From assembly GCA_018712385.1 (NCBI GenBank), contig DVHC01000043.1, forward strand, positions 1-57,380: a DNA stretch of 57,380 bases, read 5' to 3'. Shown in pieces: positions 13,118-23,014 of this stretch; position 1 is the stretch's first letter, and every line of letters begins with the position of its first letter. Under the pieces are notes generated by a model. It saw only the letters and a list, made by a program, of their open reading frames with translations. It had not been told where the DNA came from and searched no databases. Made by a program: the position numbers and the translations under genes. This stretch comes from Candidatus Onthousia excrementipullorum. Its GTDB lineage: Bacteria; Bacillota_I; Bacilli_A; RF39; UBA660.

Positions 13118-13136
13118 AAAATATTTAAATTTGTAG

Positions 13137-13228
13137 TTGACAAATCATTCTCTTATTAATATAATGTTAATAACAAGTTTAATTACTTGCTTATTTCTTA
13201 GCTTTTGATATTAATAAAAAGTTAATAA
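13137..13228 (+). promoter_or_regulatory. Consensus sigma-A promoter with two AT-rich palindromic operator candidates (putative NrtR sites) upstream of pncA
   Basis: TTGACA (13137-13142), a 17-nt spacer and TATAAT (13160-13165). TTATTAATATAATGTTAATAA (13153-13173) overlaps the -10. ATATTAATAAAAAGTTAATAA (13208-13228) abuts the RBS. The same layout recurs at 17937-18027. Confidence 0.6.
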
Positions 13229-13242
13229 GAGGAGGGATAATT

Positions 13243-13830
13243 ATGAAGGTTAAGAATTTTAAAGTCTATAATAAAGCTTTAATTGTTGTTGATATGGTTA
13301 ATGGCTTTGTTAAGGAAGGAGTGTTACATGATGATAGTATCGCTAGAGTTATACCTAGACAGATAGAACTTATTAAAGAATATCATAATGAAGGAGAACT
13401 TGTTATCTTTATTCAAGATACTCATACTAAAGAATCTATAGAGCATAAGAGATTTCCTGATTATCACTGTCTTAAAGGTAGTGGAGAAGAGGAAGTAGTG
13501 GATGAGTTAAAACCTTTTACTACTTTAGATAATACTATATGTATACCTAAGAACTCTACAAGTTTTATGGAATCCCCTGTTTTTAGAGATGTGATGAAGG
13601 AAGCTTCTAATATAAAAGAGTTTGATATAGTAGGATGTTGTACTGATATTTGTGTATGTAATGGTTCTCTTGGCCTTGCTAATTATTTAGATGAACATAA
13701 TAGAGATAGTGTTATTAGAGTGCATAAAGATGCTGTGGCAACCTTTGCAGAAGGTAATAGACAAAATTATGTAGATGCAGCTTACTTACTTATGGACCAA
13801 CAAGGAATTCAGTTAGTTAAAAAAATTTAG
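13243..13830 (+). CDS. pncA: Nicotinamidase (isochorismatase/cysteine-hydrolase family)
   Basis: 195 aa with ALIVVDMVNGF and the catalytic-Cys region VGCCTDICV. It lies directly upstream of pncB. Confidence 0.75.
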   Translation: MKVKNFKVYNKALIVVDMVNGFVKEGVLHDDSIARVIPRQIELIKEYHNEGELVIFIQDTHTKESIEHKRFPDYHCLKGSGEEEVVDELKPFTTLDNTICIPKNSTSFMESPVFRDVMKEASNIKEFDIVGCCTDICVCNGSLGLANYLDEHNRDSVIRVHKDAVATFAEGNRQNYVDAAYLLMDQQGIQLVKKI

Positions 13831-17936: not shown

Positions 17937-18027
17937 TTGACAATTCTTTATCTTATTAATATAATGTTAATAACAGAAATAATTCTGCAATTAATTTTAA
18001 GTTTTCTTATTAATAAAATATTAATAA
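17937..18027 (+). promoter_or_regulatory. Second copy of the consensus promoter plus palindromic operator pair (putative NrtR sites)
   Basis: TTGACA (17937-17942), a 17-nt spacer and TATAAT (17960-17965). TTATTAATATAATGTTAATAA (17953-17973) is identical to the copy at 13153-13173. A perfect palindrome, TTATTAATAaaaTATTAATAA, lies at 18007-18027. Confidence 0.6.
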
Positions 18028-18049
18028 GAAAGAGGAGGTAGTTATGAAT

Positions 18050-19950
18050 GTGCGACAGTAAGCACTAATTATATAGTTGGAGATTAACCAACCTAGTAAA
18101 CCAGGTCAGGAACTAGTACTAGTCTATGGAGCCAAAATCGTGAGATTAGGTTTAAGCGTTAGAACTAGGAGATATGAGAGGAATAGATACGACACTATCC
18201 AGAGAAGATATTCTCTGCTATTGAGCCTCGTTAATACGATAAATGAAAGCCTATGTTCTATTCATAACAGTAGGCAGTAATACACAAACGCTAATGACAA
18301 GGATGTGTAGGTTTCATCGGGGTCTAAGGGTATTTCGAGCAAATCATAATATAATTAGTGTACCTGTGAGGTCTTGTGAGTTCCAAAGCGTTGACGGTTT
18401 AGAACACCAACGATAAAGGTTTAATACAAACTGGCAGTGAGGTCTTAAAGATGAGTAAAATCAGAGGTCTGTAAATGACTCACAAGAAGTCGGACTAGTT
18501 CATAGTAGTGAAGATATAACGTGGTAGGTTAAGGAGCGAAGGGACTAGCATGTAATCGTTTCTGAATAAGAAACAAATACACATAAGAAAGGTGAAGAAA
18601 TTATGGAAAATGATTATTCAGAAATAAGAAGACAGTTAATAAAATACAAAAATGTTCAAAGTCTAATGCAATACATTAACGAAGATACTTTCATGGCTAA
18701 GCATAAGGCTCTTAATGGAAATAAAGCAGTAGGAGTTGATAAAGTAACAAAGAGTATATTCGATATGAATGCAGAAGAAAACATAAGAAAACTATATGAT
18801 GATATGAAGAAGTATAGATATAAGCCATATCCATCAAGGAGAGTTTATATACCAAAAGCTAATGGTGATAAAAGGCCGTTAGGGATACCTAGTTATCAAG
18901 ATAAAATAGTAGAAGGAGTAATGGCAGATATATTGAATGAAATATATGAGTATATCTTCTTATCCTGTTCTTATGGATTTAGACCAAATAGAGACTGTCA
19001 TCAAGCAATAAATGCACTTGATAAAATAATCATGAAGAAGAAAACAAATTATATAGTTGATGCAGATATAAAAGGTTTCTTTAATAATGTTAATCATGAG
19101 TGGTTAATAAAATTCTTAGAACATACAATAAAGGACAAAAACTTTATAAGGTATATAAAGAGGTTTCTTAAGGCTGGAATTATAGAAAATAATAATTATT
19201 ATGATACAGAAAAAGGAACACCTCAAGGAGGACTTATATCACCAATACTCGCAAATGTTTATTTACATTATGTATTAGACTTATGGTTTGAACTATATGT
19301 TAAAACTAAATGTAAAGGTGAAGCTCATTTAGTAAGATACGCAGATGACTTTGTCGCATGTTTTGAAAACGAGGAGGAAGCAAAGTGGTTTTACAAAGAG
19401 TTAATAGAACGTCTTGCAAAGTTTGATTTAGAAATAGAAACTAGTAAAACCAGAATATTTCCCTTTGGAAGAAACTCTAAAACAAAAGACAATTTTGATT
19501 TCCTAGGTTTTAATATTTACAATAGCAAATCTAGAAAAGGTTACTATATGGTGGGATATAAAACAAGTGAAAAGAAATCAAAACAAAAGAAACAAAAGAT
19601 AAAAGAGCATATAAAAGTAAACAGAGATACTAAGCCTAAAGATTTAGTTAAACAATTAAATAAAATATTAACTGGATACTATAACTATTATGGAATAAGT
19701 TTTAATTTCAATTGGTTAGTAGAAATATATAATTATACATTACTACAATTGAAGAAATGGCTAAGTAGAAGAAGCCAAAGAGGTAAAATGACATGGGAAA
19801 AGTATATGGCAATAATAAGATACAATCCTTTGGTAAAACCTAGAATAACCTATAAGTTATGGTAAATTTCAAAGATTATGTGAAGAGCCGTATGCGGGAA
19901 AGCTGCACGTACGGTTCCGTGAGGGGCGATAGTTTTACTTTCAACCTCAC
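18050..19950 (+). mobile_element. Group II intron (about 1.9 kb) with an intron-encoded reverse transcriptase/maturase
   Basis: The 5' end is GTGCG at 18050. Domain V is GAGCCGTATGCGGGAAAGCTGCACGTACGGTTC (19885-19917). The domain VI stem is GTGAGG...CCTCAC with a bulged A (19943/19944), and the 3' end is AC at 19949-19950. Intron ATTCATAAC (18260-18268) is the exact reverse complement of the last 9 nt of the 5' exon, GTTATGAAT (18041-18049). Confidence 0.9.
18603..19865 (+). CDS. Group II intron reverse transcriptase/maturase with no endonuclease domain
   Basis: 420 aa. RT motifs include RPLGIPSYQDKIV, FRPNRDCHQA, GTPQGGLISPILANVYL and YADDFV. The short C-terminus has an X/maturase region only. 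Confidence 0.9.
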   Translation: MENDYSEIRRQLIKYKNVQSLMQYINEDTFMAKHKALNGNKAVGVDKVTKSIFDMNAEENIRKLYDDMKKYRYKPYPSRRVYIPKANGDKRPLGIPSYQDKIVEGVMADILNEIYEYIFLSCSYGFRPNRDCHQAINALDKIIMKKKTNYIVDADIKGFFNNVNHEWLIKFLEHTIKDKNFIRYIKRFLKAGIIENNNYYDTEKGTPQGGLISPILANVYLHYVLDLWFELYVKTKCKGEAHLVRYADDFVACFENEEEAKWFYKELIERLAKFDLEIETSKTRIFPFGRNSKTKDNFDFLGFNIYNSKSRKGYYMVGYKTSEKKSKQKKQKIKEHIKVNRDTKPKDLVKQLNKILTGYYNYYGISFNFNWLVEIYNYTLLQLKKWLSRRSQRGKMTWEKYMAIIRYNPLVKPRITYKLW

Positions 19951-19974
19951 AAATAAAAGAAAAGAGGTAAAGAA

Positions 19975-21072
19975 ATGAAAGAAAATGGAGGTCGTCTACT
20001 CGACAATTTAAAGTTGATAGTACTAGAGAATATTAAAGAGTTAGGAGAAAAAGTTAATAGTGATTTAAAGTTGATTAGAGGAGAAAAAACTAATTATATG
20101 ATAACTGTTAAGGAAGATAGATTTTCTAATGGTGAAGGTAAAGTAAAAATAGAAGATACGGTTAGAGATAAAGATATTTATATTATCTCTGATGTTGGTA
20201 ATTATGATACTACTTACAATATGCGAGGGATTGTTCATCATATGGGTCCAGATGAACATTTTCAGGATATAAAAAGAACAATACTGGCTTTATCTGGTTA
20301 TCAAGAAAAGATTACTTTAATAATGCCTTTGTTGTATCAAGCAAGACAACATAAAAGAAAAGGAAGAGAATCACTTGACTGTGCCCTTGCTCTGCAAGAA
20401 TTAGAACATTTAGGAGTTAATCATATAATTACTTTTGATGCCCATGATCCTAATGTCTCTAATGCTATTCCAAATCTTCCTTTTGAAAACTTTTATCCTA
20501 CAAATACTATTTTAGAAGATTTGTTACAGAATGAAGATTTAAAAGATATTTTAGTCATAAGTCCTGATATGGGAGCGATGGAGAGAGCAAGGTACTATGC
20601 AGAACTTTTAGATAGTGATGTGGGAGTTTTTTATAAAAGACGTGATTTATCTCGTGTTGTTAATGGTAAAAATCCAATAATTGAACATACTTATATGGGG
20701 AGTGATGTTAAAGATAAAGATGTTTTAGTAGTAGATGATATGATTGCATCCGGCTCATCTATGTTGGAAGTAGGGAAAATGTTAAAAGAAAAAGGAGCTA
20801 GGAAAGTATATTTTATTGCAACTTTCGCCTTATTTACAGAAGGAATAGAGGCTTTTGATAAAGCATATTTAGATGATACTTTTGATAAACTTTATACTAC
20901 TAATCTTTCTTATATACCAAAAGATTTTAAAGATAAGCCTTGGTTTCATACAGTAGACTGCTCAATGAATATTGCGAAAATAATTAATGCTTTACATAAT
21001 AAAGAATCTCTAACTCCTTTATTAAATGGTAAAGAAAAAATATTAAAGTTAAGAGGTGAGAAAACTTTATGA
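19975..21072 (+). CDS. prs: Ribose-phosphate pyrophosphokinase (PRPP synthetase), long form
   Basis: 365 aa. The PRPP-binding loop is VLVVDDMIASGSSM, and DAHD and SPDMGA motifs are present. Confidence 0.8.
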   Translation: MKENGGRLLDNLKLIVLENIKELGEKVNSDLKLIRGEKTNYMITVKEDRFSNGEGKVKIEDTVRDKDIYIISDVGNYDTTYNMRGIVHHMGPDEHFQDIKRTILALSGYQEKITLIMPLLYQARQHKRKGRESLDCALALQELEHLGVNHIITFDAHDPNVSNAIPNLPFENFYPTNTILEDLLQNEDLKDILVISPDMGAMERARYYAELLDSDVGVFYKRRDLSRVVNGKNPIIEHTYMGSDVKDKDVLVVDDMIASGSSMLEVGKMLKEKGARKVYFIATFALFTEGIEAFDKAYLDDTFDKLYTTNLSYIPKDFKDKPWFHTVDCSMNIAKIINALHNKESLTPLLNGKEKILKLRGEKTL

Positions 21073-22130: not shown

Positions 22131-22180
22131 CATTTTTCTTAAAATTATGTTATAATCAAATTATGAAAAAGAGGTGTAGT

Positions 22181-23014
22181 ATGGAAAAAGTTTATAAGAG
22201 TGAAGAAGAGTTTTTAAAAGATTATAATGCTAAAGACTTTGAGCAGTTATCAATGACTGCTGATATCCTTTTAATTAGTGTATCTAGTGAAGAAGTTAAT
22301 AACTATCGTAAAAATAGTAAGAAGATGATGAGTATCCTTTTAGTTAAAAGAAGTGACTATCCTTTTAAAGGTAAATGGTGCCTACCTGGAGGATTTTTAG
22401 ATCCTAAGACGGAAACTTTAGAAGAGTGTGCAAAAAGAGTATTAAAAAGAGAAACTAATCTATCTAATATCTATTTAGAACAGTTATATACTTATGATGC
22501 TCTTGATAGAGATCCTAGAACAAGAGTAGTATCAACGGCTTTTATCGCTTTAGTAGATAAAAATAGATTAACAGAAATGATTAATCCTAATGCTTGTTGG
22601 TTTGATGTTATGTTAATAGAAGAAAAAGATAATATTGTAGATATTTCTTTAACTAATGGAGTAGAGAATATTAATCTATCAATTAAAAAGACTTTAAGAG
22701 AAAAGACAACTGATAGATATAGTTTTAAAGCGAGAAAAAATGTATTGGCTTTTGACCACGATATAGTCGTATTAGCAGGATTAGAACGTTTAAAAAATAA
22801 ATTAAATTATACTGATATTGTCTTTAATATGATGCCTGAATACTTTACATTAGGAGAGTTACAACAAGTTTATGAAGTAATACTTAATAAGAAGTTATTA
22901 GATCCAGCTTTTAGAAGAATTATTAAAGATAAAGTAGTTAAGACTAATAAAATGAGAACTGGAGAAGGACATAGACCATCAGTATTATTTAAGTATAGGA
23001 AGAAAAATGATTAA
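22181..23014 (+). CDS. nrtR: NrtR-family transcriptional regulator (Nudix-like N-terminal domain plus C-terminal winged helix)
   Basis: The Nudix box is degenerate (GGFLDPKTETLEECAKRVLKRETNL). The C-terminus has FTLGELQQVYEVIL...DPAFRRII. The start is ambiguous. ATG 22181 follows GAGGTG (22171-22176). ATG 22163 would be nearly leaderless behind TATAAT at 22151-22156. Confidence 0.8.
   Translation: MEKVYKSEEEFLKDYNAKDFEQLSMTADILLISVSSEEVNNYRKNSKKMMSILLVKRSDYPFKGKWCLPGGFLDPKTETLEECAKRVLKRETNLSNIYLEQLYTYDALDRDPRTRVVSTAFIALVDKNRLTEMINPNACWFDVMLIEEKDNIVDISLTNGVENINLSIKKTLREKTTDRYSFKARKNVLAFDHDIVVLAGLERLKNKLNYTDIVFNMMPEYFTLGELQQVYEVILNKKLLDPAFRRIIKDKVVKTNKMRTGEGHRPSVLFKYRKKND

Follow-up and report, generated by a model that had tools for sequence, protein, structure and literature searches.

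Since a group II intron copy that stays unspliced inactivates its host gene, bacterial introns of this kind are believed to avoid housekeeping genes. In Ll.LtrB, the SD (Shine-Dalgarno sequence) and start codon of the gene for the IEP (intron-encoded protein) are carried by an intron helix of domain IVa that is bound by LtrA. The association of this intron with ribosomes is dealt with in another study (PMC3851717). In a 2015 review, three target specificities were recognised for bacterial introns, i.e., homing sites, terminators and attC sites (PMC4424553). According to PMC12584367, the hairpins of terminators or attC sites precede the insertion sites of group IIC introns, whose intron-binding site 1 (IBS1) is only 3–4 nt long. 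The same paper describes, after Michel et al. (2007), a proteobacterial IIB1 lineage found at start or stop codons (e.g., Avi.groEL and EcKTE56.groEL), whose 3.2-kb members carry a subdomain Ia of 300–700 nt near their 5′ end and home site-specifically by pairing of exon-binding sites (EBS) with IBSs; an interplay with the ribosome at the splice site is also discussed there. The B.c.I4-type class B introns of the Bacillus cereus group carry a 3′ extension of 53–70 nt named 'domain VII' (PMC1865049, PMC2691827, PMC3261151). In B.c.I4 itself, this extension follows a domain VI of the normal type, whose bulged A lies ~60 nt upstream of the splice site (PMC1865049). The present work deals with a group II intron found on contig DVHC01000043.1 of Candidatus Onthousia excrementipullorum, whose whole 57,380-nt stretch is called the window below and on whose forward (+) strand all oriented features lie. 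The explanation judged best, which we consider fairly probable, is that this intron (18050–20004) sits at the start codon of prs, the gene of a phosphoribosyl pyrophosphate (PRPP) synthetase, that its splicing restores Prs, and that a start site carried by domain VI would allow the unspliced RNA to be translated.

The boundaries of the intron are given by comparison of filled and empty sites. Ten intron-less prs alleles were found in the genus (75–96% amino acid identity), all starting with ATG A(A/G)T. Seven of them read ...AAGGAGGT-ATTT ATG AAT AAT TTA AAA TTA ATA GTG (MNNLKLIV), with small variants: two have ATG AGT, and codons 3–5 are AAT TTA AA(A/G). The remaining three (75–76% identity) read ATG AAT ATT or ATG AAT GAT TTA AAA. 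In the window, the native SD of prs, GAGGAGG (18032–18038), matches the AAGGAGG of the intron-less alleles and is located 5 nt before the ATG. The GTGCG of the intron 5′ end (18050) directly follows AGGAGGTAGTT ATG AAT, of which ATG AAT (18044–18049) constitutes prs exon 1, i.e., codons 1 and 2, and the intron is followed by AATTTAAAG (AAT TTA AAG TTG ATA GTA). This 5′ boundary is the one proposed in the first-pass annotation, a reading of the same DNA from its letters and open reading frames (ORFs). The empty alleles equal 18044–18049 joined to 20005 onward, so the intron splits prs between codons 2 and 3 and does not lie in a leader, as had been supposed. The comparison with intron-less alleles that the first-pass annotation had advised did recover the empty site, which is prs coding sequence and not a leader. 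Exon 2 (20005–21072, codon 3 onward, NLKLIVLEN...) encodes a PRK06827-type PRPP synthetase (NF005299, 465.6 bits). When the 365-aa ORF listed by ORF callers (19975–21072) is considered, proteins of relatives align only from residue 7–12 and the NF005299 model begins at residue 11. Furthermore, the Rfam alignment independently ends at 20004, where the 3′ strand UCUACUCGAC matches the consensus CUA*CCC-AY and gives the end CUA*CUCGAC. Since filled and empty sites, Rfam alignment and the covariation described below agree, the 3′ end is placed at 20004, which gives a complete intron of 1955 nt.

The same unit was found in other genes. The 1955 nt, including the 54 nt that follow position 19950, abut different exons at four other genes, always in frame with exon 2. 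These copies (L032, L036/L048, L060 and L068) come from two other species of the genus and are 93–96% identical to the intron of the window, SD, AUG and the ten codons included, which argues for recent transposition. At L032, the intron separates ...GGAGGTGATGAA ATG AAT from AAA ATA AAA AGA in a 302-codon ORF encoding a membrane protein; the homologue of this gene in the genome of the window starts with ATG GTA AAA ATA AAA (MVKIK), which fits a spliced product MNKIK. The three other copies adjoin a 551-codon frame (L036/L048), a 212-codon frame (L060) and a 32-codon membrane peptide (L068).

Domain VI (19919–20002) is expanded, with 84 nt against ~37 nt in relatives with a short domain VI. An alignment of 12 related introns with a long domain VI was used for testing the basal helix that closes it (19920–19930 with 19991–20002). 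This helix is 99.2% paired and four of its 11 pairs have changed on both sides (G-C to A-U twice; A-U to C-G or U-A; U-G to A-U or C-G). Among 500 shuffles, not one came up to these values and, in a control in which the partner strand was slid, pairing fell to 30–42%. The minimum free energy (MFE) fold of 19880–20010 (−38.8 kcal/mol, z −3.85) pairs 19919–19930 with 19991–20004 and leaves A19998 bulged. This adenosine, the predicted branch point in the Rfam alignment of domain VI (CUACUCGAC), lies 7 nt from the 3′ splice site and is invariant in the 12 relatives. The Rfam span of domains V and VI is 105–131 nt in introns with a long domain VI versus 74 nt in ordinary relatives. The relatives with a normal 37-nt domain VI share the basal strands GUGAGGG... 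and ...UCUA*CUCGAU; the lineage of the window therefore carries an insertion of ~45 nt in the distal part of the domain. The domain also contains a pyrimidine segment, CCUCAC (19945–19950), which can pair with the 5′ strand GUGAGG or, alternatively, through its CCUC with the SD-like GAGG. The MFE fold pairs ACCUC with GAGGU. The local hairpin between GUGAGG (19919–19924) and CCUCAC, to which the end at 19950 of the first-pass annotation corresponds, reaches −10.0 kcal/mol without any bulged A, and a YCUCAC motif is present in 11 of the 12 long-domain relatives. The alternative proximal state is predicted at −14.9 kcal/mol versus −21.1 kcal/mol for the full domain VI.

As in B.c.I4, the true 3′ splice site thus lies ~54–56 nt past a simple prediction of domain VI, and the extra segment belongs to the mobile intron. 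Unlike the B.c.I4 extension, for which no SD or start codon has been reported, the additional sequence is enclosed by the basal helix of domain VI and the branch A keeps its canonical distance of 7 nt. In view of the covarying basal helix and this canonical distance, the idea that the 54 nt after 19950 are a captured host leader or a B.c.I4-like extension was rejected.

The expanded domain VI carries an SD, GAGGU (19964–19968), located 6 nt before an AUG. This AUG and the nine codons that follow (19975–20004, MKENGGRLLD) end exactly at the 3′ splice site, and their reading frame continues into prs exon 2. As long as the RNA is unspliced, MKENGGRLLD and exon 2 thus form one continuous frame, the native protein beginning with MN. 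What had been taken for the true ribosome-binding site (RBS) and ATG of prs, 24 nt after the intron (19964–19977), therefore lies inside domain VI and accompanies the intron when it is found in other genes. In each of the five locations of the intron, the phase of the domain VI AUG is the only one that is open for long (355, 292, 551, 212 and 32 codons). An SD-like purine run is present in all relatives with a long domain VI, and lineages whose IEPs share only 57% identity (L035, L080 and L076) keep the SD and AUG module as MENNGGRLLD or MENNGNRLLN. By contrast, the short-domain relatives examined, which are not found at gene starts, have no SD and, with one exception, no start codon in the 3′ half of domain VI.

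The phase of the SD-proximal start mostly tracks the phase of insertion. When the intron is inserted after ATG or ATGNNN (window, L035, L076, L080 and L034), the distance from the AUG to the intron end is 30 or 15 nt, i.e., phase 0. When it is inserted after ATGN (L061/L049 and L075), this distance is 31 or 13 nt, i.e., phase 1. In L014 and L015, located 5–8 nt upstream of a host ATG, the start is a UUG that precedes the intron end by 13 nt and is in frame with the exon ATG at +6 or +9. Over seven independent lineages, such a match of phases has a chance probability of ~5e-4, assuming one start per intron. Taken together with the sequence comparisons above, this suggests that the intron-borne start probably makes prs translatable without splicing. 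From the native ATG, the unspliced RNA would give MNVRQ, as previously noticed, before a TAA located 15 nt into the intron (18050–18067). An in-frame TAA occurs at the same early point of the conserved start GTGCGNCAGTAAG in two of three relatives checked (L032 and L035), the third (L076) having its TAA 21 nt in.

At the 5′ side, ATTCATAAC (18260–18268) is the exact complement of the last 9 nt of the exon. This 9-nt match, reported in the first-pass annotation, does exist, but only six of the paired nucleotides (AUUCAU with AUGAAU) are common to the near-identical copy L032, whose exon is GAAATGAAT; the three others are considered fortuitous from this comparison. The EBS1 itself is thus AUUCAU (18260–18265), in a hairpin loop of domain I. 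According to a domain I alignment, the EBS1 loop is complementary to its own 5′ exon in 11 of 12 introns. For example, AUUCAU pairs with AUGAAU in the window and with AUGAGU in L035 (one G-U), CAUUUC with GAAAUG in L080, GUUCAU with AUGAAC in L037, UCAUAA with UUAUGA in L061, CAUAGA with UUUAUG in L034 (one G-U) and UCAUUU with AAAUGG in L075 (one G-U). In the same way, UCUUUC pairs with GAAAGA in L013, CCACUU with AAGUGG in L050 and CACC with GGUG in L014. This covariation of the loop in 11 introns supports the earlier proposal that the EBS1-IBS1 pairing fixes the 5′ splice site. CAU, which is complementary to a start codon, occurs in most EBS1 loops, and the alignments indicate that the target is recognised by ordinary EBS1-IBS1 pairing with the start codon and the next codon. 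At each of the five insertion sites of the window's intron, the 3′ exon begins with an A. No EBS2-IBS2 pairing is common to the window and L032, two near-identical introns with different exons at −7 to −12; EBS2 is treated here as absent or weak.

A perfect palindrome with 13-nt arms and a 3-nt centre does precede the intron (18003–18031), as had been noticed, but its role as a stem-loop guiding insertion does not hold. It belongs to a family of four operator copies, a palindromic site being present at its position in most empty-site alleles (L003–L009) that keep the promoter, and it is absent upstream of the L032, L035, L061 and L076 sites. A targeting hairpin in the style of group IIC is therefore rejected. 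The intron resembles group IIC members (B.h.I1, O.i.I1, GsI-IIC and the E. rectale intron) by its endonuclease-less IEP of ~420 aa, its compact ribozyme and the lack of a convincing EBS2-IBS2 pairing. It differs from them by an EBS1-IBS1 pairing of 6 bp, by a nearby palindrome that is a host operator missing at other sites, and by an IEP that is not preferentially similar to solved IIC reverse transcriptases (RTs).

Among the introns with a CAU-type EBS1 and both exons known, four lie at clear starts (window, L032, L035 and L061), three at start-like sites (L076, L034 and L075) and one is internal (L080). The genome contains 866 ATGAATA sites, of which only 72–76 (8.5%) are gene-start-like, a start-like site being defined as one that is preceded by an SD and opens an ORF of 60 codons or more. 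Survival of introns at start codons would be expected, since a gene stays translatable only when the insertion falls at its first codons. L076 (990–2914) is inserted exactly in the ATGA stop/start overlap of two genes, and its unspliced RNA loses both the stop codon of the upstream gene and the context of the downstream one.

The intron of the window has the sequence features of a mobile group II intron: a 5′ GUGYG, a match to the domain I model, domains V and VI with a bulged A, a 3′ AC end, an RT and maturase (X) protein encoded in domain IV, and an EBS1-IBS1 pairing. An Rfam scan of the whole window at gathering thresholds (49 for RF02005 and 40 for RF00029) gave only these two families. 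RF02005 (group-II-D1D4-6) matches the domain I core at 18081–18332 (87.4 bits, E 4e-23, full model 1–225) and RF00029, corresponding to domains V and VI, matches 19883–20004 (54.5 bits). Domain V (19885–19917, 33 nt), which has the catalytic AGC triad in the RF00029 alignment, forms a helix that is 98.7% paired with six compensatory pairs. The RT/maturase ORF (18603–19865) encodes an IEP of 420 aa with RVT_1 (E 1.2e-39) and GIIM (E 1.3e-8) domains and an intact YADD, RYADDF being encoded at ~19341–19358. This IEP passes NCBIfam TIGR04416 (378 bits for a cut-off of 300), and a domain search of its 420 aa found no nuclease or endonuclease domain. The Rfam, RVT_1, GIIM and TIGR04416 matches thus bear out the earlier identification of a group II intron with a 420-aa RT devoid of an endonuclease domain. 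Compared with solved RTs, the IEP gives E-values of 2e-43 and 6e-36 for IIC enzymes and of 3e-47 and 8e-46 for LtrA and TeI4h, respectively; this PDB comparison excludes a close tie to IIA (LtrA), TeI4h or IIC RTs. No paper mapping Rfam D1D4-6 to an intron class was found in the literature search. The intron is complete and endonuclease-less, and it looks active and recently mobile.

Several observations weigh against a start site working in domain VI. A more lenient null, allowing any start codon in any phase, raises the probability of the phase match over the seven lineages to ~0.02. All predicted folds engage the SD and the AUG in base pairs within domain VI, and the SD-like purine run could be purely structural. 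Since the basal helix imposes the GGRLLD part of the mini-ORF, the conservation of this part is no evidence of coding. The pattern is not universal either: in L080 (842–2769), the MENNGGRLLD module follows an internal Met of a ~530-codon open frame, so the start-codon bias of the lineage is not absolute; the ORFs that follow L075 and L034 have only 7 and 34 codons, respectively; and, in the G017 lineage, the domain VI frame has only an AUU or meets a stop 4–6 nt before the host ATG (L050, L062 and L072). A promoter-like site at 19788–19816 could give intron-internal transcripts, such hits being at chance frequency. Lastly, the presence of introns at start codons may reflect targeting or mere survival under selection.

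The same observations feed an alternative, with unchanged boundaries, in which the SD and AUG of domain VI would be only structural, prs being wholly dependent on splicing and the in-frame start a by-product of a conserved domain. The purine run does pair with an upstream CCUC-type segment in all folds, the partners varying by lineage (CCUCUC/GAGAGG, CCUUUC/GAAAGG and ACCUC/GAGGU), the basal helix determines half of the mini-ORF, and L050, L062, L072 and L033 have no canonical in-frame start. We regard this possibility as rather unlikely: in most lineages, the SD-like run is followed at 6–10 nt by a start codon, the phase of this codon shifts with the phase of insertion (0 or 1) across independent lineages, the phase of the domain VI AUG is alone in being open into five different host genes, and the short-domain relatives, which do not sit at gene starts, lack the module near the splice site. 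A decayed and immobile intron is very improbable. Splicing would then no longer occur, and an internal promoter or the intron-borne start would alone account for prs expression. In its favour, one could invoke the single copy in this genome, an RF02005 score lowered by a 32-nt insertion in domain I (87 bits versus 110–152 bits in relatives), and the promoter-like site mentioned above (10/12 matches). Against it, the ribozyme landmarks (GUGCG, EBS1, domain V, branch A and 3′ AC) are all present; the IEP frame is intact with its YADD and matches the full-length RT/maturase model above the cut-off; and the presence of 93–96% identical copies at four sites in two species argues for recent transposition. 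Furthermore, promoter-like hits are at chance frequency (12 versus 11.1 expected), which led to the rejection of an intron-internal promoter for prs.

The interpretation put forward in the first-pass annotation, i.e., an intron ending at 19950 and located wholly in the 5′ leader, with splicing leaving a 3-codon mini-ORF (MNK-stop) and the RBS and ATG of prs lying 24 nt downstream, is hardly tenable. It is true that GUGAGG and CCUCAC can form a hairpin resembling domain VI (−10 kcal/mol) and that ORF callers list 19975–21072 as a complete 365-aa ORF with a good SD. This hairpin lacks a bulged A, the empty sites lack all of 18050–20004, including the supposed RBS and ATG, and the 54 nt beyond 19950 travel with the intron to four other genes. 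Covariation backs a long-range helix ending at 20002, and relatives of Prs have no counterpart of residues 1–7 of the 365-aa ORF. The MNK-stop mini-ORF and the separate RBS and ATG of prs are thus artefacts of placing the boundary 54 nt too early.

If prs does carry a start-codon intron with its own start site, as favoured here, splicing of a transcript controlled by NrtR would give the native mRNA (MNNLKLIV...), and ribosomes loading on the intron-borne site of unspliced RNA would make a full-length Prs in which MKENGGRLLD replaces MN (MKENGGRLLDNLK...). Insertion at the very start of a gene would then cost the host little, and such a low cost would explain why the intron persists mostly at start codons, including that of prs, an essential single-copy gene. 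Translation from the domain VI start site would need an unfolded domain VI. Since the SD and AUG are base-paired in the splicing-competent domain, translation and branching are probably mutually exclusive on one molecule. As in domain IVa of Ll.LtrB, the start site would be embedded in, and occluded by, a structured intron domain, with ribosome access opposed to ribozyme folding. However, the site of Ll.LtrB serves the intron's own protein, whereas the present one would serve a host gene across the 3′ splice site.

The predicted folds also allow the expanded domain VI to be seen as a two-state device that would either translate or splice, an idea that is speculative and, in our view, doubtful. 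In one state, GUGAGG would pair with the proximal YCUCAC, which is transcribed first; the SD and AUG would be free, the branch-site helix unformed, and the host protein made from unspliced RNA. In the other, the basal helix with its bulged A would form, the SD and AUG would be locked in inner helices, and the intron would splice and become mobile. The load of ribosomes on the intron-borne start could then set the balance between expression of the host gene and mobility of the intron, and a ribosome at the native start codon would mask IBS1. In the window, a ribosome initiating at the native prs ATG would cover IBS1 and the 5′ splice site.

The IIB1 lineage found at start and stop codons shares with the present introns their location: the window, L032, L035 and L061 introns lie after ATG(N)(NNN) with an SD upstream, and that of L076 at an ATGA overlap. 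The two groups differ in their architecture. The present intron has no room for a subdomain Ia, the RF02005 match starting at intron nt 32 and the 5′ ribozyme being 553 nt long, and its 420-aa IEP has no endonuclease domain, the IEPs of IIB1 introns being of the CL1 type. For IIB1 introns, domain VI is not described as carrying a replacement SD and AUG, whereas the special feature of the present intron lies in this domain. Furthermore, the IIB1 lineage is proteobacterial and the present one comes from gut Bacilli and Clostridia. Bacterial introns at start codons are thus already known; an in-frame host start site inside domain VI is apparently new, as a literature search that did not extend to subscription journals found no paper in which domain VI carries the SD and AUG of a host gene.

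The host gene belongs to a cluster for NAD metabolism. In the assembly concerned (1.5 Mb, 27% G+C, 75 contigs, 90.7% complete), prs is the sole match to TIGR01251 (Prs family) and hence the only detectable PRPP synthetase gene. It is preceded by pncA, pncB, a Nudix gene and nadE and followed by nadD, pncC, nrtR (22163–23014, within the prs operon) and nadK. The promoter of the prs-nadD-pncC-nrtR-nadK unit (17937–17965) consists of TTGACA, 17 nt and TATAAT (12/12 matches to the consensus) and is kept in intron-less relatives. It is paralogous to the promoter of pncA at 13137, the two being part of a 72-nt direct repeat with 13134–13205 that is 76% identical. The first-pass annotation was right about this paralogy and about the transcription of the intron from a regulated promoter upstream of prs-nadD-pncC. 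A 22-nt operator family has four copies, at 13154, 13209, 17954 and 18008, i.e., two per paralogous promoter. The first copy of the prs promoter (17954–17975), a candidate NrtR site, overlaps the −10 box; the second is the perfect palindrome at 18003–18031, recognised from its sequence and from the repeat family. NrtR sites are known as 21-bp palindromes (PMC2330246). The palindrome shares this 21-bp geometry, which agrees with an NrtR operator, as does the location of nrtR in the operon; the palindrome is a host operator, probably one for NrtR.

The two paralogous promoter modules (13137–13245 and 17937–18049), which head the pncA-pncB-nudix-nadE and prs-nadD-pncC-nrtR-nadK units, each combine a perfect TTGACA-17 nt-TATAAT promoter with two AT-rich palindromic sites of 21–22 bp. 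If both modules contain NrtR operators, as is probable from their sequence, the intron RT would be transcribed under NAD-responsive control.

Outside the window, a near-identical intron was found in one genome of the same genus, that of Candidatus Onthousia faecigallinarum, an uncultured gut member of Bacilli. The IEP has ~120 close homologues, mostly on 2-kb contigs, and a metagenome scan gave only 11 loci. The exact 3′-end pattern GGAGGTCGTYTACTCGAC had no match in viral contigs and, among 401 genomes sampled across the class, was found only in the present one. This genome also encodes a second full-length group II RT/maturase of another lineage (G000:C49:528-1571, L087, 421 bits) and four weaker RT-like genes below the intron cut-off (C26, C75, C1 and C58; L089–L092), which are possibly retron or defence-type RTs.

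A sister lineage has several copies in one genome (G017; L013, L062, L072 and L050, on contigs C48, C76, C36 and C26), mostly at contig ends. These copies are inserted 7–18 nt after a −10 box and 9 nt before a start codon, apparently inside the host SD, one of the hosts being ffh. Their domain VI carries AAGGAGG but only an AUU or UUG start, the UUG frame stopping 4–5 nt before the host ATG. Within the genus, at least five genomes (L019, L051, L052, L053, L063 and L074) have a short-domain relative at the same conserved site of one host gene, a case of classical homing whose target is a conserved gene; ATGG(N)GTTAT begins the 3′ exon, which reads ...GVIFDYDKERLK. About 370 nt downstream of a short-domain copy, a T-box leader (RF00230, 99.6 bits) was found at L019:542-755 (G006:C11).

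If the favoured explanation is true, this lineage would escape the cost that unspliced introns impose on housekeeping genes by inserting at first codons and bringing a replacement RBS and start, so that the gene could be translated whether spliced or not. This would be a distinct strategy of accommodation between intron and host and would explain the persistence of an intron in a single-copy essential gene. [quoted passage not shown] The lineage may thus constitute a natural system for studying the competition between ribosomes and ribozyme folding at both splice sites.

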